From the NCBI GenBank assembly GCA_001777665.1, contig MFEQ01000006.1, forward strand, positions 213,442 through 277,441: a stretch of 64,000 nt of DNA. Reading direction: 5' to 3'. Source of the stretch: Candidatus Doudnabacteria bacterium RIFCSPHIGHO2_02_FULL_42_25. Lineage in GTDB: Bacteria; Patescibacteriota; Doudnabacteria; UBA920; O2-02-FULL-48-8. Every line of letters starts with the position of its first letter. Within the stretch, counting starts at the first letter, position 1. Below the pieces are notes generated by a model that did not search any database, was not told the DNA's origin, and worked only from the letters and a program-made list of their open reading frames with translations. Shown one piece after another: positions 3,736 to 28,318 of this stretch. A program made the translations under genes and the position numbers.

Positions 3736-4793
3736 ATATTGCCGATTATTACTGGTGATCTTTTAATTGACCCGGCTGATGGTGGGTCAGCATAGCCAAG
3801 TCGAAAAATCATTATAGGGATCTCATCCGAAGACAGAGAAAAAATTTGACGAATCTTATTTTCGGCGTTTTTGATTAAATCCATCTGTTTGGGCAAAAAT
3901 TCGCTCGTATCTCCACCGTTTATTCGCTGGGCTAAAAATAAAATTGCCGCCACTGGCTGCATACTTAAACCAAGTCCAGTGCCAGTCAACCAAACTCTTT
4001 GAAAAAACCTACCAGCTAATATAAGCTGATCTTCACTAAGCCCAGCTGTTGCGATAATTCCGTAAGCCGGGGTAGATGCATAGAGCTTTGCAGAATCTTT
4101 GGAAACCATTTTTGACACGCCGAAATGATTCAAAAAATTAATTATTTGCCAATTTCTAAAAAGTTTAAAAGCCTTTTCTTGAAGTGGAGCTAATTCTAGA
4201 GTCTTAATATACATTCCATTTTTGGTTTTATCTTCATCTGTTTTTGACCATCGGATATATTTAAATAATCCATCATGAATTTTTTTATTTTCAAGTATAA
4301 GTCTCTCATTTAGATTTAGTGTACTACTTAACGCTTTTATTGCTACCGGGTCTTCCAAAATAAAATATTTTTTTATATTGTTTTCTCTCGGTACATTCAA
4401 TAAAATATTTAAATCCTCAGGCGGAATGGACTTACTTAGATATGGCTTCCGGTTGGTCACCCGTAGTGGAATTTGCTTTGCTTGGTTACTATCTCTTTTA
4501 TCACTAGGCAAGAACGTTACCTCGGCAATCAGTCCCGAAATGTTTTCTTCGGGGAATAATTTTATGGCAGTTTCAAAACCTGTAACGCCTGCTAAAATTT
4601 TAATATTTTCTATTAGTGCACCAATCCCTATATAAGAGCCTCTTTCTTCAAAGTTATAAAAGCTATCGTCAGCACCAAAAACGATATAGACAAAAACTCC
4701 ATTATCTTTCAATTTGAACTTCCATGGTTGAGAATTATCACCGGAAGGGGCCAACACAGCTTGATTTAATATTTGTTTTATAATTTCTCTCAT
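3732..4793 (-). CDS. nitroreductase-superfamily protein with duplicated domain (SagB/Acg-like)
   Basis: N-terminal APSGDNSQPW motif typical of nitroreductase/SagB-type FMN enzymes. The approx 350-aa length is consistent with a tandem nitroreductase fold. Confidence 0.65.
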   Translation of the reverse strand: MREIIKQILNQAVLAPSGDNSQPWKFKLKDNGVFVYIVFGADDSFYNFEERGSYIGIGALIENIKILAGVTGFETAIKLFPEENISGLIAEVTFLPSDKRDSNQAKQIPLRVTNRKPYLSKSIPPEDLNILLNVPRENNIKKYFILEDPVAIKALSSTLNLNERLILENKKIHDGLFKYIRWSKTDEDKTKNGMYIKTLELAPLQEKAFKLFRNWQIINFLNHFGVSKMVSKDSAKLYASTPAYGIIATAGLSEDQLILAGRFFQRVWLTGTGLGLSMQPVAAILFLAQRINGGDTSEFLPKQMDLIKNAENKIRQIFSLSSDEIPIMIFRLGYADPPSAGSIKRSPVIIGNI

Positions 4794-4794
4794 T

Positions 4795-6231
4795 TTATGT
4801 AAGAACCATCCTGGCTTTTTTGCCCTTCGTATTTAATAATCCAGCAATTTTTCCTGTTTCAGCTAATCTACCATATGGTTCTAGTTTTACTTGGGGTTGC
4901 GCCTTGGTACCGATTGCAGAATATAGTTTCCGATATTCGATACTTAATTCACTCAATTTTGAAGAAATAGTATCGACAATTAAATTTAACATTCTTGGAT
5001 TCGCTTTAGTTTTCTCTGCCAACTCCAGTTTTAGGTGGAGCTTTTGATTTTTTTGATTTTTTGAATTTTGATTATAAGCCAAATAATTACCAGTTAAATA
5101 TTTCGAAATCTTTCTATCTTCAAGACTTGTTTGTAAATTTTCAGGATAAACGTTTATTGCATAAAAAGTCACAGCGACATCAGTACGACCTTTTTTTACA
5201 AAAAAAGGCATCTTCCAAAATTGGAGGCCGTGTTCCTTGGCCTTATTAAGCAAACCTAGCTTTTTAAGTTTGTCTTGCATTTCATTATAAGGAATAATAG
5301 CCCCTTGATCATGAATATTGTATCTAATTAATGGGATGCTGGTTTTTGTTGTAATCAACAACTCATCATTCACTACTTCGAAATATGTAAGATATGGATC
5401 GTATTGCATCAAAGCCGGCTCGACTACTTCTTGCTCAAAAACTTGTTTATACAAAGCTGGGTTCTTCAGAGCTTCTTCACGGATATAAATACTGATTGGG
5501 GTTTCATGTCCTAACGCCCCGGTGTCCGCAGAACCATAGATACTTATAATATTTTTTTTAGAATTGATTCCGAGTAAATCAAGTAGACTCCGACGCCATT
5601 CTTCCGTAAATTTATCCCCCGCCGTAATGACAAAAGTATTTTTAGAAAACTTTATTTTTGCCTTCCTTGCATCATTGACTATGTCCATAACAAATGGAGG
5701 ATAACCTGCAATTACTATGTTTTTGAAATGAGGTCCGAGTATTCGCAAAGAATTAATTATATCGATTTTTTCAATTCCTGGTGTAATTGTGGATAAATTA
5801 AATCCTTTTCTAGAAAGATTTCTGCAACAAGCCAGAGTATAATTGCCTGCCACCCAAAGTCCCATAGCAAAACAAATAACTACCAAGGTCGAATCGTCTT
5901 TTTTTATCCTAAAAATATCAGTAAAAATCTTTTCATGAAATTTTCCCCCAATCTTCTCTTGATCATCACCACGGAACCAGAAAGTCGGCTTGCCGGATGA
6001 ACCTGAACTAGCGTAAATCATTGGAGCAATTTTATCTTTAGAAAAAAAACGATTAAAAGGATATTGATAAAGATAATTTTTCTTTTCCATTATCGGAACC
6101 TGCTCAAATTCTCTATGACTTTTCACCTTTGAGGGATTGAAATGATGGCGAGAAATAAAATCTTTGTAAGACGGTACCTCTTTGGCAGCATCTCTAAAAA
6201 TTCTTATTGCATTTTTTAATCCTTGTCTCAT
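4795..6231 (-). CDS. adenylate-forming enzyme, phenylacetate-CoA ligase (PaaK/CapK/F390 synthetase) family
   Basis: AMP-binding P-loop-like SSGSSGKPT. Length and overall architecture fit the PaaK family. Packed tightly between neighbours. Confidence 0.7.
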   Translation of the reverse strand: MRQGLKNAIRIFRDAAKEVPSYKDFISRHHFNPSKVKSHREFEQVPIMEKKNYLYQYPFNRFFSKDKIAPMIYASSGSSGKPTFWFRGDDQEKIGGKFHEKIFTDIFRIKKDDSTLVVICFAMGLWVAGNYTLACCRNLSRKGFNLSTITPGIEKIDIINSLRILGPHFKNIVIAGYPPFVMDIVNDARKAKIKFSKNTFVITAGDKFTEEWRRSLLDLLGINSKKNIISIYGSADTGALGHETPISIYIREEALKNPALYKQVFEQEVVEPALMQYDPYLTYFEVVNDELLITTKTSIPLIRYNIHDQGAIIPYNEMQDKLKKLGLLNKAKEHGLQFWKMPFFVKKGRTDVAVTFYAINVYPENLQTSLEDRKISKYLTGNYLAYNQNSKNQKNQKLHLKLELAEKTKANPRMLNLIVDTISSKLSELSIEYRKLYSAIGTKAQPQVKLEPYGRLAETGKIAGLLNTKGKKARMVLT

Positions 6232-6234
6232 TTG

Positions 6235-7323
6235 TTATTTAAATTGAGATCTGAATAGTTCTGTTTTTTGTTTCCTAACTTCTCGATTCTTTTCATTATT
6301 ATAATCTGGTATTAATTTCTCCTCGAGACTTATTTGATATCGCCCAGATGGCATGATTTGATGATTGGCAATCTTTCGTACGACGTATCCTACAGCAGCA
6401 CCTGCGACATTTGCGGTTGAACCAAGTTGCGGCACGGCCGAAATACTCTTACCTATTTCAGAAACAGATTCCTGCATACTCTCACTTAAAAATTCAGGAC
6501 CAACAATTTTAGTTGCTAGTTTCAACCATGAGTGAAAATCAAGTTTTGTTACCTGTTCTAGGGTAATATCCACCAAACCATGGAAGATCGGACGCTCGGG
6601 CTCCAAATCGAATCTTTCCACATCGAGTATAACACCGTCACCGTTATCCGTAGCCATAAGTACAGGAATTTTTCTATTTTTGCAATAAAACCGTGCCAAT
6701 ATCTTTAAATCGATGCTATCCATCTCATCAATAAAAACTTCAATTTTCGGATTACCTAGAAATTCTAGTAGGTTATCTTTGGTTAAACCCTTACTGTAAA
6801 CATTTAATTCTGCGAAAGGATCAAGTTCCCAAATCCAGTCTGCTGCGATTTCTGTTTTATTGCGCCCCAAATCAAGCAAATTTGAATTTATTCTGTTTAA
6901 ATTCGTAAATTCTAAATTATCATAATCAGCAATGCTCATGGTCTTTGGACCACCAGTCCTAACCAAGGCATTTATAATCGATGAGCCGACCGAAAGACCT
7001 GCAACACCAACTTTAATATTTCGAAAATTTGTCTGTTCCTCAGAAGTAATAACTAATTTATTTCGAGCAGTTCTTAACTGAAAATAATAGTCTTCAGGTA
7101 AAATGTGTATAGCTTTTTTATGATCGGAATAATACACCCAAATTCCCTGTATTTTATTCTCCGTTAAAAAATTATCTAAAGCGTCTTGGTATCCTGAATA
7201 GCTTTTTTTGTATTGAGGATTTTGAACAAAAAATAATTCTTCCAATCCAGATGAAAAAACATCGATTATTTCTGCATCTTTTGGAACTTCTGATCTACTA
7301 TTGTAAAATTTCGGTTGCCCCAT
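6235..7323 (-). CDS. ThiF/MoeB/HesA-family E1-like protein
   Basis: Rossmann motif VGVAGLSVGSSIINAL after an approx 100-aa N-terminal domain. E1-like size. Confidence 0.65.
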   Translation of the reverse strand: MGQPKFYNSRSEVPKDAEIIDVFSSGLEELFFVQNPQYKKSYSGYQDALDNFLTENKIQGIWVYYSDHKKAIHILPEDYYFQLRTARNKLVITSEEQTNFRNIKVGVAGLSVGSSIINALVRTGGPKTMSIADYDNLEFTNLNRINSNLLDLGRNKTEIAADWIWELDPFAELNVYSKGLTKDNLLEFLGNPKIEVFIDEMDSIDLKILARFYCKNRKIPVLMATDNGDGVILDVERFDLEPERPIFHGLVDITLEQVTKLDFHSWLKLATKIVGPEFLSESMQESVSEIGKSISAVPQLGSTANVAGAAVGYVVRKIANHQIMPSGRYQISLEEKLIPDYNNEKNREVRKQKTELFRSQFK

Positions 7324-7337
7324 CGGCCTTTTAGAAT

Positions 7338-8885
7338 TTATCCATTAGCGAAGCTTTTAAAATATTCAACCAACGCAGAAAGTTCTTTTGTTAGTGAACG
7401 GTCTTCGATAACTGTCGCTACTTTCTCGCGAACTTTATTGTACATTTCGTGCGTCGATTTCGCTAGCTTTTCTTGAAATTGCAAAAAATCAACTGCTTGA
7501 GCTAAAGTTACAGCTTCAATAGTAGTAACTATATAAGTGTTTTCCACTACTTTATCCAATATCAACGAGGCATCGGTACCCATGCTCACAACATCTTGAT
7601 TATCGGCGTTTGTCGGAATAGAATGAATGCTATGGGGAAAAGCATAGGACTGATTTTGGGCGGTAGTTGAAGTAGCGACAAATTGTAATCCTTGAAGTGC
7701 TAAGGTTAACCCAGGCTTATTTAGGTTAAGAAACGGCGGGAAAAATTTGTTTATGCTTTGGTTCATAAAGAAATTTATCCGTCTTTCGGAAAGAATCGAA
7801 AGTTTAACCAGAGACATTTTTATCTGATCAACGGTAACAGCTATGTAGTCCCCATGAAAATTCCCTCCATGTAAAAATTCTTTGTGCTCCCTGTCTAGAA
7901 CCGGATTATCCGTCACCGAATTGATTTCAATTTCTATAACTTGAAGGCTATTTGTAACTGTCTCCAAAATCGGACCAAGTATTTGGGGAGTACAACGGAA
8001 AGAGTAAACTTCTTGTACGAAATCAGAAATCTGGTGAACAGTATCAGTAATCTTATTATTCCTATTCAAACTGTCTCGTTTTCGTAAAAGCTGACTTGTT
8101 TCAAGTAGTTCTCGTAAACTTTTGGCTATCTCTATTTGTCCAGGGTGAGGACGAAGGTTATGCAATTCTTTCGAGATTCCGTCATTGTAAGCTTGTATCA
8201 ATTCTAAAGATAGTGCGCTGTTTTTAATTTCTATGTTTAACAAATTTTTTGCGTGCATCCATAGTATCGATGCGATTCCAGACATCACAGAGGTTCCATT
8301 GATTAAGGCCAGACCTTCTTTCGGTTTTAATTTATACGGCTCTATTCCTAATTCCTTAATCACATCTATAGCTTGTCGACGTTTACCTTTATAATCAACT
8401 TCCCCTTCTCCGATTATGGCTAATGCAATATGCGCCAATTGCACTAAGTCACCACTGGTGCCCACCGCGCCGTGAGTTGGAATAACTGGTGCAATTCTCT
8501 CATTTAAGTAAAGTACTAGTCTTTCGATTAATTCGACTGAAACGCAGGAATATCCCTTTGATAGAGTATTAAGTCGCACTAACATAGCGGCAAATACAAA
8601 ATCTTGTCTTAAAGGTTCACCCATTCCAGTAGCGTGGCTACGAATCAAATTTGTCTGTAAATCTATGAGCTGTTCCTTGCCGATTAAATATGAAGCCATT
8701 GGACCCAATCCAGTATTGACGCCGTAAATTACTGTGTCCCTCAGTTTACTAGCCAAAAACTCATAAGAACTTTTAATTGAAGCGAATACAGACTTCGATA
8801 GCTTAACTTTTACAGTACTGTCTGTCACAAATCTAAATATATCCACAGCTCGTAATCCCTCGCCGTTTATTTCAAGACTATTCAT
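7338..8885 (-). CDS. aromatic amino acid ammonia-lyase/aminomutase (HAL/PAL family, MIO-dependent)
   Basis: GVNTGLG and GTSGDL(V)QLAHIA motifs, with TSG in the position of the MIO-forming ASG triad. 515 aa. Confidence 0.8.
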   Translation of the reverse strand: MNSLEINGEGLRAVDIFRFVTDSTVKVKLSKSVFASIKSSYEFLASKLRDTVIYGVNTGLGPMASYLIGKEQLIDLQTNLIRSHATGMGEPLRQDFVFAAMLVRLNTLSKGYSCVSVELIERLVLYLNERIAPVIPTHGAVGTSGDLVQLAHIALAIIGEGEVDYKGKRRQAIDVIKELGIEPYKLKPKEGLALINGTSVMSGIASILWMHAKNLLNIEIKNSALSLELIQAYNDGISKELHNLRPHPGQIEIAKSLRELLETSQLLRKRDSLNRNNKITDTVHQISDFVQEVYSFRCTPQILGPILETVTNSLQVIEIEINSVTDNPVLDREHKEFLHGGNFHGDYIAVTVDQIKMSLVKLSILSERRINFFMNQSINKFFPPFLNLNKPGLTLALQGLQFVATSTTAQNQSYAFPHSIHSIPTNADNQDVVSMGTDASLILDKVVENTYIVTTIEAVTLAQAVDFLQFQEKLAKSTHEMYNKVREKVATVIEDRSLTKELSALVEYFKSFANG

Positions 8886-9088: not shown

Positions 9089-9448
9089 TCATTTAATTCG
9101 CCAATAATAAAGTTTTGTTAGGTCTTCTGGATAGGAATCTCCATAATCTAATCCTGGTTTCTTAACTTCGAAATTATCACGTTCTGTGAGCTGTCTCCAA
9201 GTTGAATCCATTTTATATTTTTTTGGACTAGCCTTAAAGAGCAATCTCATTAGAATATTGTAAGTACTATATCCAATTCTAGCAAAGTTCTTCTGAGCTT
9301 GAATCAAGCTAACATTATTAGCGCCCAATGTGCTAGGAAATCTAAGTTGCCCTTCGTCATCTTCCCATCCACAAACTGAACAAGTGTCGTACGACCCTGG
9401 GGGATTATTGAAAGTTAAATAACCACACGCTGGACAAGTATATTGCAT
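9089..9448 (-). CDS. CPCC-family cysteine-rich protein
   Basis: N-terminal CPACGY...CSVCGWEDD motif characteristic of the Cys_rich_CPCC family. Confidence 0.55.
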   Translation of the reverse strand: MQYTCPACGYLTFNNPPGSYDTCSVCGWEDDEGQLRFPSTLGANNVSLIQAQKNFARIGYSTYNILMRLLFKASPKKYKMDSTWRQLTERDNFEVKKPGLDYGDSYPEDLTKLYYWRIK

Positions 9449-9464
9449 GTTTATTTTTTATTCG

Positions 9465-9887
9465 CTAGTCCAGAGACAAAGCTCTTGTCTCTCTAGACTT
9501 CTCTACCAAATAAGATCTCGATAAATAGATGGCAAATATTGCCCACCAAACTAAAATAAACGGATTTGGTACTTGTGAAATTTGATAAGCTTTATCCAAG
9601 GTTATTATTACTAAAGCAATAATCATTGCTGCTTTTTTACCTTTGAAGATAAAATACGCTAAAGGTAAATAAATAACCAAAGCCAAACCAGCTGTCATAA
9701 CATCTATCGAACCTCTTAGAAATCCTATCAATGTAATAATTAATGAAAGTATTAACAAGATAACCGAAATTCCTCTATAGGACTGCCTAAACTTCAGGTC
9801 ATTATACTTATCGACTTGGATTCTAATCTCATCTTCACTTAGCCTAAGCAATCCCACCTTGTTTTTCTTTTCTGTAATGTTGCTCAT
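9465..9887 (-). CDS. small integral membrane protein, hypothetical
   Basis: 140 aa with 3-4 predicted TM helices. Lies in the RHS downstream unit. Confidence 0.45.
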   Translation of the reverse strand: MSNITEKKNKVGLLRLSEDEIRIQVDKYNDLKFRQSYRGISVILLILSLIITLIGFLRGSIDVMTAGLALVIYLPLAYFIFKGKKAAMIIALVIITLDKAYQISQVPNPFILVWWAIFAIYLSRSYLVEKSRETRALSLD

Positions 9888-9898
9888 ATTGTTCTACC

Positions 9899-10228
9899 TC
9901 AGTTGCTTTGAATAAATAAATTTCTTAATTCATCAAGAAGTTTTTTTACATCCTCTTTTGAGACTCCGTCGTATAAAGCTTCAAAGTCTCCATTTTCGTA
10001 ATAGAGAAGTTCTAACGCATTTATCACAACTTCCAATTTTTTTATTGGGATACTACTATTATTTTTCTCAAAATCATTCAGAGCAGATCCGAATTCTTTT
10101 TCAGTTGCAACAAATTTAATTTTATTGGGTTTATATGGGTAACCCCGGGCATCGATCAAACTCTTAGCAATTATGTATGATTCATCCTTAGCAAAACCAA
10201 GTACTATATTATTTTTTAATTCAATCAT
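9899..10228 (-). CDS. hypothetical protein, candidate cognate immunity protein of the RHS toxin
   Basis: 109-aa ORF starting 5 bp after the RHS stop. This is the canonical position for an immunity gene (inference). Confidence 0.4.
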   Translation of the reverse strand: MIELKNNIVLGFAKDESYIIAKSLIDARGYPYKPNKIKFVATEKEFGSALNDFEKNNSSIPIKKLEVVINALELLYYENGDFEALYDGVSKEDVKKLLDELRNLFIQSN

Positions 10229-10232
10229 ATTA

Positions 10233-13200
10233 TTATCTGTTAATATCTTTCTTTATGGTATCTTTTAAATACTCCAATCCATTTTTCGGCTGAAATAATG
10301 TTGGTTGTTTCGGATTATTTATAAACAAGTTATTGTTCTTAGAATCATAATAATACTTCTTAATACCCTTAATATTAACCTTAATATCAAAGCTTTCGAA
10401 CGTTTTTTTAGCGATATTAGATATTTCTTGTTTAGACAGTCCTGGGTAATGATTTTTAATTATGGCATGCTCTGCTGCTCTATCGAATGCACTGGTTTTT
10501 GTAGTTGAACGTAAAGGAACAATTACAGAACTCTTACTCTTGGTATCAAGAACTTTATCTAAAGTTCTTATAAGATTATTTATTTCTTTAGCACGACCGG
10601 TTGTGGCAACCTTTGTTGCAGCAACTCCAGCACCCATAGTGTAAATAGTGCCTGCCGTCATCCCAATTTCTAGAGAGGTTGCAATAACGTTTGCAGTTGT
10701 TAATGTTGTGTCCTTTACTCCTCTACCGACTCGTCCCCAATCGCCGTCGAAAAGTCCTTCGGCTATATCATCAAATGATTCGCCGTACAAATAATGAACG
10801 GGATTATACTTATCCAGGAAATTAACGGCGTTAACCAAACTCCTCGGTAAATGACCGTCAGGATCTATGTAAGCAAGCGGGTTATTCCTCGCATAACTGT
10901 AGCTATTCAGTAGTTGTGGGTCACTCAAAACTTCAATCTGACCTGAACCTAGCCCTATAAATACTGGATCCTGGCTGATGAACCTACCAATACTACTATT
11001 GTAATACCTGGCGTTCATATATGACAACCCCGTATCCACGTCATACTCATGCCCAGCAAATTTTCGCTGCTCACTAAAGGTTCCCTGTTTCTGATCCAAT
11101 CTAATTCCACCGAATGGAAAATAATCCATTAACTCTTCTTGCAGACCGGTATTATTGGTCACAACATTTGATCCAGTTAAATGATCAGTATGTACAGAAT
11201 ATACTGAAGCACTGGCGCCAACTCCTTTGACGGTTGCAACTGTTTGAGTAGTCGGAGACACTATGTGTTTAGTAGGTACTGTGCCATCTGTGTTGTAAAA
11301 ACCGGTGGGATAATCAGTACTGATGCTACCATTCGATGATCTTACTCTTTGCCCCTCGTGGTCATAAGCATAATTTATGGTTGTTTGATTTGCATATGTA
11401 ACTTCAAGAACAGGATCGAAAGCAGTGCCGCTGTATTCAGAAGATCTTAGAGTCAACTGGTTGCCGCCTTTTCCACCAGTATAAGAACTGTTAATTACAT
11501 CGTGTCCTTCTCTTAGAGCTAGTAATGTATTACCAGTTTTCGAAATCCATCCCTTTCCCGTATTGTTCAAATTAAGCGTCAAGTAGGCGTTCGTACTGAC
11601 ATTAGTTATATCTTTGCGTTCTGAAGTATCTATGCCTTCAGTTGGATTAGTTATGGCTCCCGCGTTATCATAGTCATTTAAAACTAGACTAGTTGGGCTG
11701 GCTTGAGAGCCTTGCACTACCGTTACCCAATCATCACCATCGTTATCAGGATTGGTTTTACCATGCACATATACTTTCAATTTTGCATCGACTATGGAGG
11801 TGTTATCTGGTAAAGCAGAAGTATTGAAAGCCAGAAAGGCTCTTTCAATTCGATAAGTACTGTTATTTGTTTTTCCAGCCTGAACAGGCATGGTGGTGGA
11901 AGTATAACTTTGGCCTGAACCACTAGTAGCGTCATGAACACCACTCCAAGTGGAATAATTTTTATAAACATTACCATCACCCGATTGAACAGAAAATGTA
12001 GTCGTAGTGTTCGAACCGCCAGCTAACGATGCTTGGATCAAGCGGTTGTTATAATCGTAGACATAATTCTTATTACCTTCAGTTATCATATTCCCGTTGC
12101 TGTCATAACTAAAAGTTGTTGTGTTTGTTCCGTCACTAATACTTGTCACTGCATGGGGATTGGCATATCTGGAACCAGAGCTGCCATCATATGCATACGT
12201 ATAAATAGTTGTAGGATTAATTCCGATTGTTTCGGCACGAGTTAAAATATTACCAATGGCATCATAGGAGTACGTTTGACCATAAGTCGATTGGCCGGCC
12301 GCGACATTCGTTGCTGCGGTTGACATCAGTCGATTTAGATCATCATAAGTATAATCAACTGTCTTACTGGAGTTAGTATCAGAACCATCAACAATTCGGG
12401 TTATATTTCCATTAGGGTCATATGTATAACTAAGATTTTGCAACTTCAAACCATTAGCAGCTGTCGTGTTTTTATTAGTTAAACGATACAGTTTTGTAGA
12501 ATCATAAATGTTTGATGTAACTGGACCATTTGCGTAAGCTTGATAAGTAACTTGACCGTGTGGACCATAGTCCAGATCGCTCACTACATTTACAAACGAA
12601 CCGTCTGTAGCTTCTTTCCTTTTGATGGTTTCTAATTGGCCGCCTTGATTGTATGCATATTTTATTTTAGAATTATCTGGATTGGTAACTTCCAACAAAT
12701 TTCCTTGACGGTCATAGTTATAATCAGTTTGATAACTTGTTGAACTGATAGTTTTTGCTTCTTGTTTCAGTCCGCCCAAAGGATTATATAGATAATCAGT
12801 ATTTGCTCCCGAGGACTGCACTGAAGTTAGTCTACCAATTCCATCAATACCAGAATCGTAATTATACGTAACTTCTGTTCCTGCTTGGCCAATATAGTTT
12901 TCAGTTAGTCTTCGGTTGATATCGTCATATGTGTACTCGACTTGCTGATTGTTTGGGTTTGTACTTGAGATAAGATTGCTCGAATCATCGTAAATATAGC
13001 TCCATAGACCGAAGGTTGTGTCAGTAGGATTATGTAAATCTTCTGATCCTATGCGACGGCCTAACCCATCATAGCTAAAATTGCGAATGTTACCCGAAGC
13101 ATCAGTTATCTTGGTGAGGTTACCTAAATAATTATAATCATAATGAGTGGTATAAGTATTTCCGGAATTAAATTCTTCAACCTTTACCAAATTCCCGTAT

Positions 13201-16200
13201 GCATCTTTATACAGATTTTTGATCTTGCCTTTTGGATCAATTACGGTAAATTTCTGATCATTGTAAATATTACTTGAAGTACCTACCGCATTCGTAACAC
13301 TAACCACTCTTTGCATCGGATCATAGGTGTGCAGAGTTAAAAGGTTAGGGTTTGTATTAACTGATGTTTTACTAAACCCATTTGAAAAGTATGGCAAAGA
13401 TTGTTTATAAACCTGTCCGAGGTTGTTATAAACCGTATCAGCGACGGAGTAAACATTGTTATCTTCTGTCTCTTTCCTGATTTGCACAGGTCTATTCAAA
13501 CCATCATAGTAGGTATAAGTATCGACAGCGTTAGAATTGTCTAAATAATCAGTTTTCTTCGAACTCACGGCACCCGGAGTATCAGTATATACATACTCTG
13601 TTTTCACTACTATGGTTTGCGGATCAGTTAAATCCGGCTGTTTCTCGGCAATGACGCGATCCAGGCCATCATAAACAGATTGAAACACTCGAGAATTAAT
13701 ATCAGTAATCTGCTTGGGTTTGCCTAATGAGTAATCGTAGACATACGAGGTGCTTTGGTTTAAAGCATTCGTAACTGTTGCTGGATAAAGATTATTTGTA
13801 TCGTAAACATAACTGGTGGCTTTACCTCGCGGATCAATATCAGTAGTTATTAATCCAAATGTTGGATCATAATTTTTTTGAATACTTACATAACTCGAAC
13901 CTGCTTTCCAATTTTCCTGTTGAGTGAGATTCCCCCTAGAATCATAGCTGTACTTAGTTTCCTTGACCTTATTCGAACTTTGGTCAACTGTGGTTTCTTG
14001 ACTTGGGTACGCATAAATGTAGTACGTTGCATTAGCGACATAAGAAAAGTCCGTTGTAAATTTATCAGTTCCTGTATCGGTATATGCTCCATCATCGCTG
14101 CCAGTAACTTCTCCCCATTCTATCTTTTGACTCAGATTGCCAGTGGTGTTGCTGTAAGTATATTCTTCTGTCTTGTCTTTGTGATCCGCATCACCATCGT
14201 AAGTAAGTTCTGTGGTTCTTACAAGTTTAACAAAATTCCTACTATTACCAAGATCATATTTATCCCATTTGTTGACTGTTTTAAGATAAATATTACTGCT
14301 TCCGTCTTTCATTTCTGATCTGTATAGTTTACCAACTTTGGAGATGTGATCACTATATTCACCATTACTACTATCAGTAGTGTTACCTTGATGGTAATAC
14401 GTTTTAGTGACTTGACCAGCCGCATTAGTTTTATTGATTATATTAAATCCGGCAAATTGTCTATCAAATGAAGTGTTAAAGTAATAACTGCCGCTCTCAT
14501 AACTATATGAAGTTGTGTAAGTGGAATTTACTTTGTCGTCGTTAGTAAGTTGATAGACAGTGTCTAAATTAATTCTTGCACTCGGATTTAATAGAGTTGA
14601 GCCACTAACATACCTAGCACTGGCTTTGTAAATAACAGCTGTCGTTCCAGCACTTGGATATGTAATTTTATTTGTAAGGTCAGCTTTGTTTCTATTATTA
14701 AATCTCGTGCTGCTCACAACACCATTACTACTATAAGCGCGGATGAGATCAACCATCCCATCAGCGTTTATATCCACTGCTTGAGTGCCGGTCTCTCCGT
14801 TACTACTGGTGACAAATTCCTCAACAGCGCCCCAATTAGTTCCTGTTTGCGTCCATCCATAACCGTTGTTATAGTAGCTTACTGGCGTCCCACCGCCAAT
14901 AAATTTTGATAAATCTATCAATCCATCACCATTGAAATCAAATGGACGTACTCCTTCATCAACATTGCTTCTAAATACCATTGGTGGAGCCCAAGAAGTA
15001 TTATTTGAAGTCCAACCTGCACCATTACCCAGATACGCTTCTTTGTACTGAGTTTGTCCATTTTGCCATCCACGCAACAAATCGGCTAATCCATCATTAT
15101 TGATATCTATAATAAATACACCTAATTTCAAATCAACTGGCACTATCCAATTTACCGAAGTCCAACCTGCACCATTATTAAGATATACATCGTCAACAAT
15201 AGTGCCATTATTATCATAACCTCTAATTACATCCACTAGTCCGTCACCATTTAAATCAGCCAATTGTGACGTGTATGAATCACCCGAGGATGAAGGACCA
15301 AAGGGTATCGGTGAATACCAAGTGGAATTATCTGCTGACCAGCCACTTCCAGTATTTAAATATGCTTTATTGACACCAACTGTGGCCTGCAGAATATCAT
15401 TAAGTCCGTCTCCGTTCACGTCAGCTATTCGAACACCCTGGTCTACTCCTGAACTATCAAAAAACTGAATTGGAGGTTGATAACTAGCACTTGTTGTCCA
15501 AGTACCATCTTGGTCGTTTAGATAGGCTGTTTTTGTGCTCCCATATGAATGGAGAATATCAGGGTAGGCATCACCATTAACATCAGCAATATATACTTCA
15601 CTGAAAGGGACTGGATACGTCCAATTAGTATCGTTAGAGTTATAGTTAGAGCTCCCATTATTGTTTGTTATTTGGTAATCAAAATCTGTTACAGGGAGTG
15701 AAACCGTGTTTGAACTTTCGTCTTGACCAGTTTCTGTAATAGTATTTAAGACATATCTTCGTCCATTATCTGCTGCTGTATATGCTAAAGCCCATTTCCT
15801 GGCCCAAGTATCACTAATTTTTGCTTGAATCTCATAAATTCTGTAGCTAGTAGTCACACTAAACCCAGGCTTATAACTAATTGTTGAATCTGATCTAGAT
15901 TCTTTTAAAAATTCGATGACAAAGATACCATCAGTTGAACCATTTCCTGTATATGTAATCTTGTATGGATAAATCTGGCCAGCATCCTTTGTATATTCGT
16001 ATTTGATATAGTTTTCATTTCTATCTCTAACTTCTTGAAGCATCCATTTGTAGATATTACTTCCGCTATCTTGTCTTTCCGCAGCATTTGTTCCAAATTT
16101 ATATGCAGTTCCTTTCTTATCTTTTACTGTCCAAACATTGTCAGTTAAATCATAGGTTAAAAATTCACCATTATCGACTTTGGAACCCCAAGATGAACCA

Positions 16201-16802
16201 CTAATTAAATAAAGTTCTCCCGTAAATGATGAATTGAAATAATTATCTGTATATAGCTTATCAGCTCCTTTGCGATTAATTCGTTCGATATACGGAATAT
16301 TTACAGACCAACCATAAGAAAATACACTTCCTTCATCGTTAGACTGACTGCTGTATACCAATGCAACATCTGGTTGAAGCCCGTTTCGGCCAGGAGGAAT
16401 AGTTAATGGGTATTGATAATTTAATGAACCATTCACTTCACTAACTTGTGGGAGTTTTTGGCCTGCAACAGTGTTCTTACCTGAGTCAGGACCAGGACTC
16501 GAGGCCAAAAGATTAGTTGCTTCAGGATCGGAATCTTTGCCTTTATCCTTATCTTTGATAGGTTTGGGATCTTTATTATTTTCTGAAAAATCTTTCTCAT
16601 CCTTAAGCTGCTTATCCTCATTAGTTTCTGATTTTTTATTTTGTTCGGGTTCTGGTTCCGAAGATATCTCAGATGCGGATTGATCTACTTCCTTAATGGG
16701 TTCAATCGGCAACTCGGATTCTGCAGCGAAAACGGGAGTAAAGGGCGTAATGAGAATAAAGAATGCCACCACTATCGCAACCAGACTTTTGGAGTTAGTC
16801 AT
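10233..16802 (-). CDS. RHS/YD-repeat polymorphic toxin (2189 aa) with signal peptide, FG-GAP-like DxNGDG repeats, YD repeats, RHS core and a variable C-terminal toxin domain
   Basis: Signal peptide MTNSKSLVAIVVAFFILITPF. Repeats DVNGDGLNDIL and DLNGDGLVDVI. Many YxYDxxGN(L/I) YD repeats. RHS core ...GRFISQDPVF...NPLAYIDPDGH, followed by an approx 205-aa tail. Confidence 0.85.
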   Translation of the reverse strand: MTNSKSLVAIVVAFFILITPFTPVFAAESELPIEPIKEVDQSASEISSEPEPEQNKKSETNEDKQLKDEKDFSENNKDPKPIKDKDKGKDSDPEATNLLASSPGPDSGKNTVAGQKLPQVSEVNGSLNYQYPLTIPPGRNGLQPDVALVYSSQSNDEGSVFSYGWSVNIPYIERINRKGADKLYTDNYFNSSFTGELYLISGSSWGSKVDNGEFLTYDLTDNVWTVKDKKGTAYKFGTNAAERQDSGSNIYKWMLQEVRDRNENYIKYEYTKDAGQIYPYKITYTGNGSTDGIFVIEFLKESRSDSTISYKPGFSVTTSYRIYEIQAKISDTWARKWALAYTAADNGRRYVLNTITETGQDESSNTVSLPVTDFDYQITNNNGSSNYNSNDTNWTYPVPFSEVYIADVNGDAYPDILHSYGSTKTAYLNDQDGTWTTSASYQPPIQFFDSSGVDQGVRIADVNGDGLNDILQATVGVNKAYLNTGSGWSADNSTWYSPIPFGPSSSGDSYTSQLADLNGDGLVDVIRGYDNNGTIVDDVYLNNGAGWTSVNWIVPVDLKLGVFIIDINNDGLADLLRGWQNGQTQYKEAYLGNGAGWTSNNTSWAPPMVFRSNVDEGVRPFDFNGDGLIDLSKFIGGGTPVSYYNNGYGWTQTGTNWGAVEEFVTSSNGETGTQAVDINADGMVDLIRAYSSNGVVSSTRFNNRNKADLTNKITYPSAGTTAVIYKASARYVSGSTLLNPSARINLDTVYQLTNDDKVNSTYTTSYSYESGSYYFNTSFDRQFAGFNIINKTNAAGQVTKTYYHQGNTTDSSNGEYSDHISKVGKLYRSEMKDGSSNIYLKTVNKWDKYDLGNSRNFVKLVRTTELTYDGDADHKDKTEEYTYSNTTGNLSQKIEWGEVTGSDDGAYTDTGTDKFTTDFSYVANATYYIYAYPSQETTVDQSSNKVKETKYSYDSRGNLTQQENWKAGSSYVSIQKNYDPTFGLITTDIDPRGKATSYVYDTNNLYPATVTNALNQSTSYVYDYSLGKPKQITDINSRVFQSVYDGLDRVIAEKQPDLTDPQTIVVKTEYVYTDTPGAVSSKKTDYLDNSNAVDTYTYYDGLNRPVQIRKETEDNNVYSVADTVYNNLGQVYKQSLPYFSNGFSKTSVNTNPNLLTLHTYDPMQRVVSVTNAVGTSSNIYNDQKFTVIDPKGKIKNLYKDAYGNLVKVEEFNSGNTYTTHYDYNYLGNLTKITDASGNIRNFSYDGLGRRIGSEDLHNPTDTTFGLWSYIYDDSSNLISSTNPNNQQVEYTYDDINRRLTENYIGQAGTEVTYNYDSGIDGIGRLTSVQSSGANTDYLYNPLGGLKQEAKTISSTSYQTDYNYDRQGNLLEVTNPDNSKIKYAYNQGGQLETIKRKEATDGSFVNVVSDLDYGPHGQVTYQAYANGPVTSNIYDSTKLYRLTNKNTTAANGLKLQNLSYTYDPNGNITRIVDGSDTNSSKTVDYTYDDLNRLMSTAATNVAAGQSTYGQTYSYDAIGNILTRAETIGINPTTIYTYAYDGSSGSRYANPHAVTSISDGTNTTTFSYDSNGNMITEGNKNYVYDYNNRLIQASLAGGSNTTTTFSVQSGDGNVYKNYSTWSGVHDATSGSGQSYTSTTMPVQAGKTNNSTYRIERAFLAFNTSALPDNTSIVDAKLKVYVHGKTNPDNDGDDWVTVVQGSQASPTSLVLNDYDNAGAITNPTEGIDTSERKDITNVSTNAYLTLNLNNTGKGWISKTGNTLLALREGHDVINSSYTGGKGGNQLTLRSSEYSGTAFDPVLEVTYANQTTINYAYDHEGQRVRSSNGSISTDYPTGFYNTDGTVPTKHIVSPTTQTVATVKGVGASASVYSVHTDHLTGSNVVTNNTGLQEELMDYFPFGGIRLDQKQGTFSEQRKFAGHEYDVDTGLSYMNARYYNSSIGRFISQDPVFIGLGSGQIEVLSDPQLLNSYSYARNNPLAYIDPDGHLPRSLVNAVNFLDKYNPVHYLYGESFDDIAEGLFDGDWGRVGRGVKDTTLTTANVIATSLEIGMTAGTIYTMGAGVAATKVATTGRAKEINNLIRTLDKVLDTKSKSSVIVPLRSTTKTSAFDRAAEHAIIKNHYPGLSKQEISNIAKKTFESFDIKVNIKGIKKYYYDSKNNNLFINNPKQPTLFQPKNGLEYLKDTIKKDINR
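10236..10852 (-). other. variable C-terminal toxin tip of the RHS protein (after the DPDGH motif), unknown family, glycine-zipper-like segment
   Basis: Sequence downstream of the PLAYIDPDGH cleavage/demarcation motif. Contains GMTAGTIYTMGAGVAATKVATTG. AT-richer than the body of the gene. Confidence 0.5.
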
Positions 16803-18536: not shown

Positions 18537-21500
18537 TTAAGGCTTTACTAGAGTCCAACTGTTAAGCGAGAGATTCTTAACTAAGAAGTCTCCTTGCCAG
18601 TCGGTCGTACCTGTATCGTGAGATAAGGCTGAAGCATCGCTCCAGACGAAGCTATGACCATCGCCTAATGTAGCATCTCCTGAGTTATCATTAGTCAGGA
18701 AAGCGGCAGAAGCTGCGTGAGTAGTGGTGTTCCTCTGAAGGTCAGCTAGGATGTTATCATTGGAAGCCAAAGTCCCACCGACAGTTGCTTTTACTTCATA
18801 GGTCCTAGCACCGCTTATTAGCTCTTCTACATCATCATCGGCTTTAGTTCCGATAGTGATCAATAAGTCACAAGCTGTATCTAGTTCCTCGCAGTTTGTA
18901 GCAGTATCTGTACCAGCACCGTCACCGTCAGCAGAGATAAATGTCTCAACTGCTGTGACCACTGCGCCAGTGTCAGCATTATGGATAGCAACGCTAGCCA
19001 AGGTCGGATCAGTACCAGCGCCATCAGCAGCGCCACCGGTCTTAGCTATCTCTATTAAGACTTCCTTCCAAGCTACTGCGCCGGTACCATTTGAAGATAC
19101 CGTAAACTTGGCAAGGGTCTGCGTGCCTCCGGTCAAAGTTCCAGTCGGCAATTCTACACGAGAGATCAACGGAACAGACTTGTAGGCATACATGGTATTT
19201 CCAGGTCTATCTGTACCATTAGTCGTTACTGCACCTGACGATACCGAAGTGTACTTAACACTATCCAAGGTAGCTGTGATATCGGAATCAGTTGTGCCAG
19301 CGTTTGGACCGATAGTAGCCATGACCAATTCGACGCCTAGGACGATACTACCGTTTGCCGGGACGTTCACTGAAAATCCAGTGAAGAGCATGGAAGTGGC
19401 AGCTGGCATCGTGGCCAATGTCGCTCCAGTTGACGCATTCTTCAAGACGACTTGAGAAACTGCTGTTGCGGTTGCAAGATTGACATCAACTTCGGTCAGG
19501 TTGACTGAATCATAAGTTGAAGCAACTTTGAACCTGGCAACTTCCACGGTCCCTGAATCATCAACCAACATAGAAGCTGCAGATGCAGCATCCAAGGAAG
19601 TGGCAAATGTACCAGCAACCTCGATAATTGTCTGACCATCTTTATCGGCTTCAGAATCAGCTATCCCTGACTGTACAGTTGTCCCTGTCGAAGTCAAGTC
19701 GGTTTTTACTGAATCGTTATCGGTAATGTTTGCAGCAGCACCAATGTCACCGTAAAGCTCAATAGTCAGAGAGCTATTCATCATCAAGGTGTAATTGACT
19801 GACCAATCATTATCAGCGGCGGTTGGAGTAGACTTGATAGAAGTCGTATTCGAACCGTACTTGAGATATAGGTTAGATAGATCAGATTCATTGAAGGTTG
19901 CACCAGTAACTTCATCAATGTCCAATGAGAAGGTGGTGATATTGATGTCTTCGGTTGCAGAGCCGGTTAAGGTCCAAGCACCGAGTTTGTAGTTGGTTTG
20001 AGGAGCGACTGTGGACTGGTTTGGATATGAGGCCAAAGAAGCCAAAGTCGAAGCACCCTCAGCAACTGTCAGTTGGTTTGCAGCAATGTCAGAACCTGTT
20101 GGGACATCGAATGAGCCCAATGATACTTGTCTGGTTGCGTTACTTCCATCGTTATCGATTACGTAAGCCTGAATGGTGTCAGTAGCAACCAATTCAGCGC
20201 CACCTGTCTCTTCATCATAGATATCAGAGTACAGTTCGACTGTTGCCGGTGTACCTGGATTGACGATGAAGTTGGTGGTGAAGTTGGCGGCAGTAGCAGC
20301 AGCGCCAGCGGCAACCAAGCCTTTGGTTGAGCCGACTTGTCCACCATTGACGAAGAGCTTACCGTTGCGGAGCGTATATTCGCTATCAGTACCCGAGGTG
20401 TCGATGGCGACATCGAGGTTTTCAACCTTAATTGGTTCACCATACGCGGTAAAGGTCCATTTGCCAAGTTTTACGGACGAGGCATTGTTGGTCACATTTC
20501 CTGCTGGTGAATCAGTGGTCTTGGTTACAGTCATAGTACCGTTGTTGATAGCAACACCGTCTGAATCAGCTGGGAAGGTTCCGGTTGCACCAACGTTGAC
20601 GAGGTATTGTGAATCCACGACATCAACATCGGCTTTGTTGCGGAGCGACATCTCGAGTGTTCGAGAGGAACCGCCAATAACATCAGCAATCACTTTGATA
20701 ACCGGCGAACCAGTCTTTAGTAATTTGCTGAAACCAGAGAAGGTCACATAACCGTTAGCATCAATGTTTTGAGTTGATGCAACTTGGACACCATCAACTA
20801 ACACTCGGAAGTTCTTTACGTCGCTGTTCACGATGTTGTTGATTTGGCGCAAAGCCAATCTGGACATTGTTACATCGCGGACTCCAACTGTGAAGGTTGA
20901 TTGCCAGACAGTAATGTCAGTGCCTGGATCAGAAGCACCAGCATCAGTAGGAGCGCCTACTGCTACTGTAGCTAATTCAGCAGCTGCAGAATTGTGGAGA
21001 TTACCAACGACTGGGAGTCCACCTACGGTACCCGATGAAAGGGCAACTGCAGTTAGATTAACTCCAAGTGTTTGACCTGAGTAAGATCCATCGTCAAGAT
21101 CAGCTCGAGCAGTAATGGTTCGAGAACCTGAGACTGTGAAGAGTCCAGATGGGTTAGCAAAGGTTAAATTGTTGGAAGAGAAGGTACCAGCATCAGTCAA
21201 TCGAGTCGCACCGTCAAAGAGATAGAGGTTTGAGACCATAGCATCAGTCGAAACACCAGTTCTCATCAAGGTGAGAGACGTAACTGTGCCTGAACCTGTA
21301 AACACGAAGTTAGCTAATGGAGCAATAGATTGTGAGTAATTACCCGCACCACCATCAGTTGAATCAATAATTAATGTTGATGAAGCAGGACCAGCTAAGG
21401 AAACATTAAGAGAACCTGAAACTGGAGGAGGAGTTGTTCCACCGCCGGTGCAGGCTGCGCGCATGGAAACTGCACCTTGATCGGCCATAGCCAAATCATA

Positions 21501-22109
21501 GGAGTTAGCTCCCACGACTTTTTCAAAACCAATACCGTAAGAAGTGAATACTGCGCCTGATGGGTAACCCATTCGGCCAGTAGCGGTCATGAGCCAAACG
21601 GCTCCGCCGGTGATAACTCGAGTTCCAGCTGGGTGAGCGATAGCGCTCGAATCAATGTTGGAACCGGTTGGAAGATCAGAGAAGGTGTTTACTGGAGCGA
21701 CTTGGATGTTTGAGAAACTGTATCCGAGTCCGGTAAAGACACTACCAGTTGTAAATCCTCTCTTTTGTCCGTTGGCTACGAGGTAGACCAAAGGATCGTT
21801 TGGACCCATTACGAGGGTGCCATCAGCGTAGGTCATAATTGGTCCTACTGGCAAAGCTACGTCTTCAGCTGTGGCTGCAACAACTTGTCCGAAGTTGTAA
21901 CCATGGCTCATAAAGACTTCAGCTGACGTGAATCCACGTCGTGTACCGCCGGTGATCATCCAGACGATACCGCCAGAGAGTACCAAACAACCATCGCTAT
22001 GAACAGCAGCGGAAGCGAGTTGTGGCAAGGCACCAGAGGCAGCCCAGAGTAAACTGGAAGCAGCCAAACCGGAAGCCACGGCTTTCCGTGCTTTTAAAGA
22101 TAATTGCAT
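18537..22109 (-). CDS. large secreted surface protein (1190 aa), Thr/Ser/Gly/Ala-rich with probable Ig-like/beta-rich repeats; triplicated approx 50-aa N-terminal repeat
   Basis: Signal peptide MQLSLKARKAVASGLAASSLLWAASGALPQLASA. Three repeats of the G..W..T.G.RRGF..S..VF...GY.F type. Low-complexity T/S/G/A-rich body. Confidence 0.6.
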   Translation of the reverse strand: MQLSLKARKAVASGLAASSLLWAASGALPQLASAAVHSDGCLVLSGGIVWMITGGTRRGFTSAEVFMSHGYNFGQVVAATAEDVALPVGPIMTYADGTLVMGPNDPLVYLVANGQKRGFTTGSVFTGLGYSFSNIQVAPVNTFSDLPTGSNIDSSAIAHPAGTRVITGGAVWLMTATGRMGYPSGAVFTSYGIGFEKVVGANSYDLAMADQGAVSMRAACTGGGTTPPPVSGSLNVSLAGPASSTLIIDSTDGGAGNYSQSIAPLANFVFTGSGTVTSLTLMRTGVSTDAMVSNLYLFDGATRLTDAGTFSSNNLTFANPSGLFTVSGSRTITARADLDDGSYSGQTLGVNLTAVALSSGTVGGLPVVGNLHNSAAAELATVAVGAPTDAGASDPGTDITVWQSTFTVGVRDVTMSRLALRQINNIVNSDVKNFRVLVDGVQVASTQNIDANGYVTFSGFSKLLKTGSPVIKVIADVIGGSSRTLEMSLRNKADVDVVDSQYLVNVGATGTFPADSDGVAINNGTMTVTKTTDSPAGNVTNNASSVKLGKWTFTAYGEPIKVENLDVAIDTSGTDSEYTLRNGKLFVNGGQVGSTKGLVAAGAAATAANFTTNFIVNPGTPATVELYSDIYDEETGGAELVATDTIQAYVIDNDGSNATRQVSLGSFDVPTGSDIAANQLTVAEGASTLASLASYPNQSTVAPQTNYKLGAWTLTGSATEDINITTFSLDIDEVTGATFNESDLSNLYLKYGSNTTSIKSTPTAADNDWSVNYTLMMNSSLTIELYGDIGAAANITDNDSVKTDLTSTGTTVQSGIADSEADKDGQTIIEVAGTFATSLDAASAASMLVDDSGTVEVARFKVASTYDSVNLTEVDVNLATATAVSQVVLKNASTGATLATMPAATSMLFTGFSVNVPANGSIVLGVELVMATIGPNAGTTDSDITATLDSVKYTSVSSGAVTTNGTDRPGNTMYAYKSVPLISRVELPTGTLTGGTQTLAKFTVSSNGTGAVAWKEVLIEIAKTGGAADGAGTDPTLASVAIHNADTGAVVTAVETFISADGDGAGTDTATNCEELDTACDLLITIGTKADDDVEELISGARTYEVKATVGGTLASNDNILADLQRNTTTHAASAAFLTNDNSGDATLGDGHSFVWSDASALSHDTGTTDWQGDFLVKNLSLNSWTLVKP

Positions 22110-22558: not shown

Positions 22559-23323
22559 ATGACCAACAGCAATTTAAAACTTAAAGCAATAAATTTGAGG
22601 CAGGAAGGTTGGTCCTATAATATGATTTCTGAAAAAATAGGAGTAGCTAAAAGTACCCTTAGTAATTGGCTAGCGGAAATACCCTATAACCCCAGCGCAG
22701 AAGCAATCAAAAGAATTAAACAAGGACCTGCCAAATCTGCTGTTTTGAGACACAATATAAAGCTCCAAAACATAAAAGATATAAAAGCTCAGGCAGCTGC
22801 AGAATTAAAAAAAATTACTAAACGCGATCTTTGGATGATGGGGATTGGGTTATATATCGGTGAAGGATCTAAGGTTCATGAATATACAAGAATCGTGAAT
22901 TCTGATCCGAACATTGTTAAGCTTGCAATTAGATGGTTCCGGGAAATTTGTAAAGTACCATTAAAAAATTTTTTACTAACTGTCCATATTTATCCCAATA
23001 TTTCCGTATTGGAAGCAGTTGACTACTGGTCAACAACAACAGGTGTTCCTAAACACCAATTCGGGCAAACGCAAATCGACAAAAGGTTAAATAAAACAGC
23101 AAAAAAACAGAATCTGTTGCCTTTTGGCACAATTCATATTAGTATTAGAAGCTGTGGAGACCCTAATTTCGGTGTTGCTCTCCACAGAAAGATTATGGGC
23201 TGGATTGAAGCAGCTTATCAAGTGCGCGGGCATCGTATAGTGGCAATACCTCAGGTTTCCAACCTGATGCCGGGAGTTCGATTCTCCCTGCCCGCTCCAG
23301 AAAAGCAAAGAAGATTATTTTAA
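22559..23323 (+). CDS. HTH-domain protein with LAGLIDADG-like motif (putative homing-endonuclease-like); 3' end reads through tRNA-Gly
   Basis: N-terminal HTH GWSYNMISEKIGVAKSTLSNWL. The motif LWMMGIGLYIGEGSK resembles LAGLIDADG. The last approx 30 codons are the tRNA-Gly sequence. Confidence 0.4.
   Translation: MTNSNLKLKAINLRQEGWSYNMISEKIGVAKSTLSNWLAEIPYNPSAEAIKRIKQGPAKSAVLRHNIKLQNIKDIKAQAAAELKKITKRDLWMMGIGLYIGEGSKVHEYTRIVNSDPNIVKLAIRWFREICKVPLKNFLLTVHIYPNISVLEAVDYWSTTTGVPKHQFGQTQIDKRLNKTAKKQNLLPFGTIHISIRSCGDPNFGVALHRKIMGWIEAAYQVRGHRIVAIPQVSNLMPGVRFSLPAPEKQRRLF
23226..23299 (+). tRNA. tRNA-Gly (anticodon UCC)
   Basis: Manual fold: acceptor GCGGGCA/TGCCCGC, D-arm GTAT-AGTGGCA-ATAC, anticodon stem TCAGG/CCTGA with loop TTTCCAA, T-arm GGGAG-TTCGATT-CTCCC, discriminator U, CCA encoded. 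Confidence 0.85.
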
Positions 23324-24069: not shown

Positions 24070-24143
24070 TGGTCGGGGTGCTGGGAATTGAACCCAGTCT
24101 ATCTGCTCCCAAAGCAGACGTACTACCGGTATACTACACCCCG
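24070..24143 (-). tRNA. tRNA-Pro (anticodon UGG)
   Basis: Manual fold of the reverse complement: acceptor CGGGGTG/CACCCCG, anticodon stem TCTGC/GCAGA with loop TTTGGGA (G37), T-arm CTGGG-TTCAATT-CCCAG, discriminator A, CCA encoded. Confidence 0.85.
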
Positions 24144-27970: not shown

Positions 27971-28318
27971 CTAGGTGTTCCCCAGCCCAAGACGATTCCC
28001 CCAAGATGTCACCGCTTTCCATGCGATGTACTCCCCGGCGATGATGATCAGAAACCCCAGCGCGTACCACTCCGAGGACCCACGCCAGTCACTCCCATAA
28101 GCGTAGGCGACTGTGCCGGAAGTGACCAGAGACTGTACCATCCAGGTACCGATCGCCCACCATCCGTTGCCGTTGGCATGAAGCCTCACGACAACGAGAA
28201 CCATGCCGAGCACCATGACCGCACCGAGCCAAACCATGACTCCTCCCTTCTTCACCTCATACCAGTTTCCGCAATTCCTTCCACAGTATCTGTTGGCGAA
28301 CAGGAGATCCATTATCAC
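27971..28318 (-). CDS. hypothetical membrane protein (GC-rich block)
   Basis: 115-aa ORF with hydrophobic helices. Codon usage matches the GC-rich block. Confidence 0.4.
   Translation of the reverse strand: MIMDLLFANRYCGRNCGNWYEVKKGGVMVWLGAVMVLGMVLVVVRLHANGNGWWAIGTWMVQSLVTSGTVAYAYGSDWRGSSEWYALGFLIIIAGEYIAWKAVTSWGNRLGLGNT

Follow-up and report, generated by a model that had tools for sequence, protein, structure and literature searches.

An RHS polymorphic-toxin locus with a predicted RNase-type tip and a candidate immunity gene in a Doudnabacteria genome

WapA of Bacillus subtilis is a Sec-exported RHS/YD-repeat protein that carries tRNase tips at its C-terminus and is paired with the immunity protein WapI. 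Other described systems combine similar parts: CdiA and colicin D have a C-terminal polymorphic-toxin warhead and, immediately behind it, a small immunity gene, the Rhs effectors of type VI secretion systems (T6SSs) have a toxin demarcated by the core of an RHS shell, and the TcB-TcC cocoon of ABC (Tc) toxins joins an SpvB domain, an FG-GAP propeller and an RHS shell to a core and a hypervariable C-terminus. Here, we compare with these systems a locus in a 64-kb stretch of the very small genome of the groundwater organism Candidatus Doudnabacteria bacterium RIFCSPHIGHO2_02_FULL_42_25 (64,000 nucleotides; hereafter ‘the window’), in which the gene of a 2189-aa RHS protein is followed by three small genes. 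Judged by its genes, this locus of a bacterium of the candidate phyla radiation (CPR) is truly one of the RHS polymorphic-toxin type, and we put at roughly 0.7 the probability that it specifies a Sec-exported RHS polymorphic toxin with an RNase-type tip and a cognate immunity gene.

From what is generally known of WapA, the likeness lies in a signal peptide in place of T6SS, PAAR or VgrG domains, an RHS shell, a swappable and putatively nucleolytic tip, and an adjacent immunity gene. The window protein differs in its N-terminal half (SpvB and FG-GAP), in a DNRLRE domain in the shell and in the families of its tip and immunity protein, and no wall-binding repeats were detected in it. Neither B. 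subtilis nor Doudnabacteria is expected to have an outer membrane, and a Sec-exported, TcB-like body with neither TcA in the window nor T6SS elements offers a tractable case for cocoon delivery without such a membrane.

The succession of SpvB domain, FG-GAP propeller, RHS shell, core and variable C-terminus is shared with TcB-TcC, whereas no TcA is encoded in the window, an immunity gene accompanies the toxin, orphan arrays exist, and the tip is predicted to have an RNase-toxin fold rather than a hypervariable region of the ADP-ribosyltransferase type. The closest solved shell sequences are those of the T6SS Rhs cocoons RhsP (8h8b), Tse5 (8cp6), RhsA (7q97) and Tse15 (8uy4), at E-values of 1e-15 to 8e-21. 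The core-demarcated toxin is common to both, but no PAAR, VgrG or prePAAR domain was detected in the window protein, which instead begins with a Sec signal peptide and is TcB-like at its N-terminus. For the tip itself, the nearest known counterparts are the CdiA-CT of E. coli O32:H37 P4 (PDB 8ey4) and the tRNase domain of colicin D (PDB 1tfk and 1v74), with which it shares a predicted topology: a pre-alpha helix that bears a conserved His is followed by an alpha helix and by an antiparallel sheet of four strands. It differs from them in having only 13–17% identity, no profile match and an extra C-terminal helix (domain residues 77–89), in being carried by a CPR RHS protein and not by CdiA or a colicin, and in an immunity protein unrelated by sequence.

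Our search of the literature on RHS and polymorphic toxins in CPR, Patescibacteria and Saccharibacteria turned up no account of loci of this kind. The toxin domain and the immunity family, both uncatalogued as judged from their sequences, would extend the repertoire of polymorphic toxins and of RNases of the barnase–EndoU–colicin E5/D–RelE (BECR) fold. They also indicate that ultra-small bacteria with reduced genomes retain large RHS weapons, swappable RNase-type tips and orphan toxin–immunity arrays, which would imply frequent cell-to-cell contact and arms races driven by recombination among these uncultivated bacteria.

The toxin domain and the gene behind it

Past the core of the RHS protein lie exactly 205 residues (hereafter ‘the tip’), in agreement with the ~205 aa estimated in an earlier reading of this DNA made without database searches (the sequence-only reading). 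An exhaustive HMMER search with the tip returned 14 representatives among 1.8 billion proteins, and a word-indexed homolog search with all 205 residues returned a single relative. Among these relatives, conservation is limited to the last ~90 residues (2100–2189), and every homolog of this domain that has sequence upstream is an RHS C-terminus.

AlphaFold2 modelled the domain from a 12-sequence alignment with a pLDDT (predicted local distance difference test) score of 91 and a pTM of 0.81. The conserved module is predicted to be a soluble alpha/beta domain of 90 aa, with its helices (H) and strands (E) in the order H6–16, H25–38, E41–45, E49–54, E59–63, E69–71 and H77–89. The best Foldseek match is 8ey4_A (E = 2.6e-3, probability 1.00, TM 0.61), followed by three colicin D entries, HigB and RelE. 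The O32:H37 P4 CdiA-CT is listed among RNases (PMC11630599); our literature search on 8EY4 itself returned nothing, so that this table entry is all the information we have on that toxin.

The residues conserved in the family alignment fit this picture. H13 of the domain (H2112 of the protein), on the first helix of the model, is nearly invariant; K49 and Y51, in the second strand, are invariant, as are N64, P68 and F71, and K66 is mostly conserved (the arrangement of His and Lys being judged from the sequence and the order of elements in the model, not from three-dimensional positions). In the definition of the colicin-like BECR group (bioRxiv 10.64898/2026.08.28.747851), a pre-alpha helix that bears a conserved His comes ahead of an alpha helix and four strands. 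The domain model fits this definition in its predicted topology and its pre-alpha His; it is also similar to solved members of the group and has conserved basic residues. We place the domain in the BECR fold, solely by predicted structure, and regard a colicin-D-like endoribonuclease, probably a tRNase, as its most likely and best-supported activity. A non-toxic structural fold, which the sequence-only reading had named as an outcome that would speak against a toxin, did not emerge from the modelling of the tip, for which AlphaFold2 and Foldseek instead predict an RNase-toxin fold.

The 109-aa protein encoded directly behind the toxin has homologs in 21 clusters, all unnamed, of which one comes from a Komeilibacteria metagenome-assembled genome (MAG). 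Neither Pfam nor the PDB sequences yield a match to this family, and AlphaFold2 models the protein (pLDDT 91.4) as soluble and mostly helical. Hidden Markov models of the toxin domain and of the 109-aa protein were scanned over all loci fetched for comparison (given L numbers below). A homolog of the 109-aa protein was encoded directly past every distinct toxin copy that had downstream DNA (13/13), overlapping it or at most 14 nt away. These copies are that of the window, two each in L004 and L005, and one each in L007, L008/L009 (counted once), L010, L011, L020, L022, L023 and L024. Several of them are orphan modules, in which an RHS core-end fragment, a linker and the toxin domain are followed by an immunity gene of their own, and the loci that hold such fragments in arrays include L004, L005 and L007; by analogy with described systems, this arrangement is typical of polymorphic-toxin arrays. 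No member of the 109-aa family was found in L012, L013 and L016, where homologous bodies carry other tips. The sequence-only reading had proposed the 109-aa open reading frame (ORF) as the immunity gene and its covariation with the tip as a check; across homologous loci the ORF does track the tip, which supports the view that it behaves as a cognate immunity gene.

Some arrays contain more than intact pairs. At L007 (402–809; P0012), a chimeric 135-aa ORF starts with an unrelated, immunity-like part and ends, in frame, with the toxin domain's final ~45 residues; an immunity homolog comes after it. Its sequence has the look of a scar that recombination left in an orphan array. Past the toxin–immunity pair, L010 (8377–12596) and L011 (864–2517) hold additional orphan fragments of RHS proteins, 456 aa and 441 aa long, which match the RHS/YD shell weakly and each have small ORFs after them. 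Therefore, CPR genomes appear to hold multi-cassette toxin–immunity arrays.

The RHS body, its linker and its exchangeable tips

The RHS protein is identical to records in the Candidatus Doudnabacteria MAGs GCA_001780055.1 and GCA_001777775.1, and the recorded source of the 109-aa protein is likewise Candidatus Doudnabacteria. The database records of its proteins thus bear out the suspicion of the sequence-only reading that the DNA comes from a reduced genome, here one of CPR/Patescibacteria. Its ORF description (a 2189-aa RHS protein and tightly packed ORFs of 109, 140 and 119 aa, all on the minus strand) was accurate too, and each part of the secreted-RHS architecture that it had listed, namely signal peptide, linker, DxNGDG repeats, YD repeats and PLAYIDPDGH core, could be located. 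The features are collected in Table 1.

Table 1. Features of the RHS locus (positions counted from the first letter of the window; res, residues of the 2189-aa protein)
Feature	Position	Strand	Evidence
RHS polymorphic toxin gene, 2189 aa, stop included	10233..16802	-	ORF; Pfam/NCBIfam matches
Sec-type signal peptide, ~res 1–26 (…PVFA/AE)	16725..16802	-	read by eye from translation
SpvB/TcB-like N-terminal domain, res 123–182	16257..16436	-	PF03534, E 2.5e-10, 40.5 bits vs cutoff 22
FG-GAP beta-propeller region, ~res 407–700	14703..15584	-	PF13517 FG-GAP_3, 5 stretches, E 1.2e-16
YD/RHS repeat shell, ~res 701–1599	12006..14702	-	PF05593, TIGR01643, PDB sequence matches
Lineage-specific ~210-aa shell insertion with DNRLRE domain, ~res 1600–1808	11379..12005	-	blastp junctions; NF033679
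Rhs-associated core, res 1894–1984, ending PLAYIDPDGH	10851..11123	-	TIGR03696 Rhs_assc_core, 75.4 bits vs cutoff 32.5
Variable pre-toxin linker, res 1985–2099	10506..10850	-	not conserved among family members
Glycine-zipper-like stretch GMTAGTIYTMGAGVAATKVATTG, res 2047–2069	10596..10664	-	read from translation; within linker
Conserved 90-aa toxin domain, predicted RNase, res 2100–2189	10236..10505	-	predicted BECR colicin-like fold
109-aa cognate immunity candidate	9899..10228	-	ORF; predicted soluble, mostly helical
140-aa four-transmembrane protein	9465..9887	-	ORF and hydropathy; co-directional
119-aa CPCC cysteine-rich protein	9089..9448	-	PF14206, E 6.4e-22; co-directional

As read from the translation, the signal-peptide-like segment is MTNSKSLVAIVVAFFILITPFTPVFA/AE, the N-terminal part of the protein includes a low-complexity stretch rich in acidic residues, Lys and Pro, and six DxNxDG motifs fall within the FG-GAP region. 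The N-terminal half is TcB-like, with SpvB and FG-GAP before the RHS shell; the homolog in L010 has TcdB_toxin_midN as well. Within the shell, RHS_repeat (PF05593) matches six stretches (E = 4.4e-33) and YD_repeat_2x (TIGR01643) matches at E = 8.4e-21. The insertion, which sits just before the Rhs core, is missing from the homologous bodies of L012, L013 and L010, where the junctions of the blastp high-scoring segment pairs are contiguous. With residues ~1575–1820 scanned alone, DNRLRE_dom (NF033679) matches above its curated cutoff (E = 8.3e-11, 42.2 bits vs cutoff 34), a match that the full-length NCBIfam scan does not list; the insertion may have been added to the cocoon as a module that binds surfaces or carbohydrates. 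The motif PLAYIDPDGH marks the demarcation and is the presumed site of self-cleavage. The locus thus unites what marks RHS polymorphic toxins: a YD/RHS shell, a core with DPxG, a variable tip and an immunity gene that tracks the tip.

In a survey that covered one genome per species, RHS bodies of 38–53% identity were found in MAGs of Saccharibacteria, Paceibacterota and Doudnabacteria. Alignments with the homologs of 42–53% identity, which come from MAGs of Saccharibacteria and Doudnabacteria, end at residues ~1984–1995, that is, at the end of the core. Beyond this point, the tip of L016 (53% body identity) is a barnase-family Ribonuclease (PF00545) followed by a Barstar gene (PF01337), that of L013 (42%) is the CdiA-type RNAse_A_bac (PF18431), and that of L012 (52%) is unclassified. 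The same kind of body is therefore found with different tips, as the sequence-only reading had suggested checking. Wherever the organism is named, the carriers of the toxin–immunity pair are CPR/Patescibacteria MAGs, among them the Komeilibacteria MAG.

The linker between core and toxin domain is variable in another way: across family members, the domain follows linkers of five or more unrelated types. In 19-residue Kyte–Doolittle windows (usual transmembrane threshold, 1.6), the glycine-zipper-like stretch of the window protein reaches at best 1.03, so it is not predicted to be a membrane helix. The sequence-only reading had taken this stretch as a hint of a membrane-active tip; the stretch is indeed present, whereas the hint does not hold for a linker that is non-conserved and too weakly hydrophobic, and no PT-TG or other Pfam match was found in the tip. 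The diversity of linkers suggests interchangeable entry or translocation modules, and the linker is probably a modular pre-toxin or delivery segment and not the seat of toxic activity.

In most linkers of the family, Gly/Ala-rich segments reach a hydrophobicity sufficient for a membrane helix. Seven of 10 (P0001, P0002, P0003, P0006, P0009, P0013 and P0014) are rich in small residues and reach 2.0–2.3 on the same scale; that of one homolog is wholly hydrophilic (0.33).

Proposed mechanism and competing explanations

Beyond the domain architecture, the tip swapping, the strict toxin–immunity adjacency and the predicted fold, we infer a course of events that runs from autoproteolysis and a route of entry to RNase activity on a substrate in a particular target cell and neutralisation by the 109-aa protein. 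The SpvB-like domain, FG-GAP propeller and YD-repeat shell would together make up a closed cocoon. Cleavage by the Rhs core would be expected after DPDG, leaving the 205-residue tip enclosed until delivery, and the variable ~115-aa linker with its Gly/Ala-rich stretch would probably aid delivery or translocation. In the cytoplasm of a target bacterium, the domain would most likely act as an endoribonuclease, probably a tRNase, with H2112 on the pre-alpha helix in the place of the catalytic His of colicin D-type enzymes, and the soluble helical 109-aa protein would most likely bind and neutralise the domain in the producer and its kin.

Two results weigh against this course of events. Searches of Pfam, NCBIfam and PDB sequences with the whole tip or the domain profile gave only noise, so that no sequence links the domain to a characterised RNase family; as the sequence-only reading had noted, the tip matches no known toxin family, and with Pfam and NCBIfam scanned up to E = 10 the sole match to the domain is DUF3970, at E = 0.49. 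Additionally, a mirror-tree comparison of toxin and immunity divergence over seven non-redundant pairs gave a Mantel r of -0.04 (p = 0.54); a value of 0.52 had been obtained before the removal of one duplicate pair that drove it. Because co-divergence is not detectable in seven pairs, we claim linkage of the two genes only at the level of presence and absence.

The missing sequence match could also mean that the C-terminal domain has a structural or adhesive role and is not toxic, with the 109-aa protein as its chaperone or an unrelated neighbour. We give this hardly any credence: the domain stands exactly where RHS toxins stand, past the DPxG demarcation, a bona fide RNase with a barstar takes its place in homologous bodies, orphan fragments of it each have a small gene of their own behind them, and its best structural matches are all bacterial RNase toxins. 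A pore-forming or ionophoric tip, with the glycine-zipper-like stretch inserting into the target membrane and the four-transmembrane protein providing immunity, is very improbable as well. The Gly/Ala/Thr-rich stretch exists, most family linkers are hydrophobic, a membrane protein is encoded in the same string of genes, and ionophoric toxins are deployed by contact-dependent inhibition systems (PMC11630599). However, the stretch belongs to a non-conserved and weakly hydrophobic linker that a homolog replaces with a hydrophilic one, while the part of the tip that is conserved and tracks the immunity gene is predicted to be a soluble domain that folds like an RNase toxin. At the immunity position lies the gene of a protein modelled as soluble and helical, and the four-transmembrane gene is missing from the toxin-carrying loci L003–L011. 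We reject the membrane-active tip on the grounds of that linker and of the soluble domain predicted beyond it.

Most of the remaining interest lies in the target, which may be rival kin or, if the CPR cell lives as an epibiont, its host. The protein could be a host-directed effector, or a component resembling TcB-TcC of an ABC toxin, that brings its tip into a host bacterium or eukaryote. The TcB-like N-terminal half speaks for this, as do the recurrence of the body in Saccharibacteria, Paceibacterota and Doudnabacteria, the presence of the tip–immunity pair in Komeilibacteria, and an insertion that could serve as a surface-binding module; moreover, Patescibacteria have been described as host-dependent epibionts (PMC13622651). 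We nonetheless consider this target unlikely, as a dedicated immunity gene and orphan arrays (L004, L005, L010 and L011) are hallmarks of interbacterial polymorphic toxins. The next largest ORF in the 64-kb window encodes 1190 aa and has no Pfam match, and, with no TcA-sized partner there, a TcA-dependent ABC toxin is rejected. A bolder and quite doubtful proposal is that the cocoon is a tool of parasitism and not a weapon against kin: the DNRLRE domain would bind the host, a hydrophobic linker would cross its membrane, and the colicin-D-like tRNase would arrest or lyse the host for nutrients, with immunity serving self-protection only. As the kind of system described here is well known, the advance over it is incremental unless the target proves to be the host.

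Neighbouring genes and the wider window

The 109-aa ORF begins 4 nt past the RHS stop codon, and the 140-aa and 119-aa ORFs follow after gaps of 11 and 16 nt, respectively. Because these intergenic gaps are short, they suggest co-transcription of the small genes; promoter and terminator scans of the locus gave counts not above those for shuffled sequence.

The descriptions of the last two genes in the sequence-only reading, as a four-transmembrane protein and a CPCC protein, are both confirmed. The 140-aa protein has four hydrophobic segments above 1.6 in 19-residue Kyte–Doolittle windows (near residues 35–46, 54–64, 76–79 and 110) and no family match in Pfam or NCBIfam scans, and the 119-aa protein belongs to Cys_rich_CPCC (PF14206; 77.6 bits vs cutoff 24.5). 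To our knowledge, no function is attached to this family name. Two annotated plasmid neighbourhoods of CPCC genes show no toxin association, and our literature search on CPCC/PF14206 in toxin–immunity contexts found nothing relevant. Among L001–L017, only L001 and L002, near-identical copies of the window, share the two genes with it; the toxin–immunity loci L003–L011 all lack them. The grouping of the three small genes as one unit in the sequence-only reading fails on this distribution, and a single three-gene immunity cassette is rejected. As far as sequence comparison goes, the 140-aa and CPCC genes are not part of the conserved toxin–immunity module; they are probably either passengers transcribed along with it or orphan genes of the immunity type.

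Directly downstream and co-directional (2065–8885, minus strand) lies a string of genes for an aromatic/histidine ammonia-lyase, a ThiF-like E1 enzyme, a 478-aa protein without a match, a protein with only faint N-terminal matches to the nitroreductase family, and a 7TM histidine kinase; this string may be a small-molecule or peptide-modification cluster. An Rfam scan of the window found no rRNA and just two tRNAs (23226–23299 and 24070–24143). GC content is 52–58% in blocks at 28001–32000, 54001–56000 and 58001–61000 and 33–47% in the rest of the window. On the other side of the RHS gene, the 1190-aa protein (18537–22109, minus strand) is secreted, and its gene lies in a stretch with a GC content of 47–48%, compared with ~36% in the flanks. 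Repeated units of ~60 aa occur in its N-terminal region, which shows 30% identity (E = 3e-30) to a protein of 497 aa (L016, 3882–5375) encoded beside a further RHS locus of Doudnabacteria.

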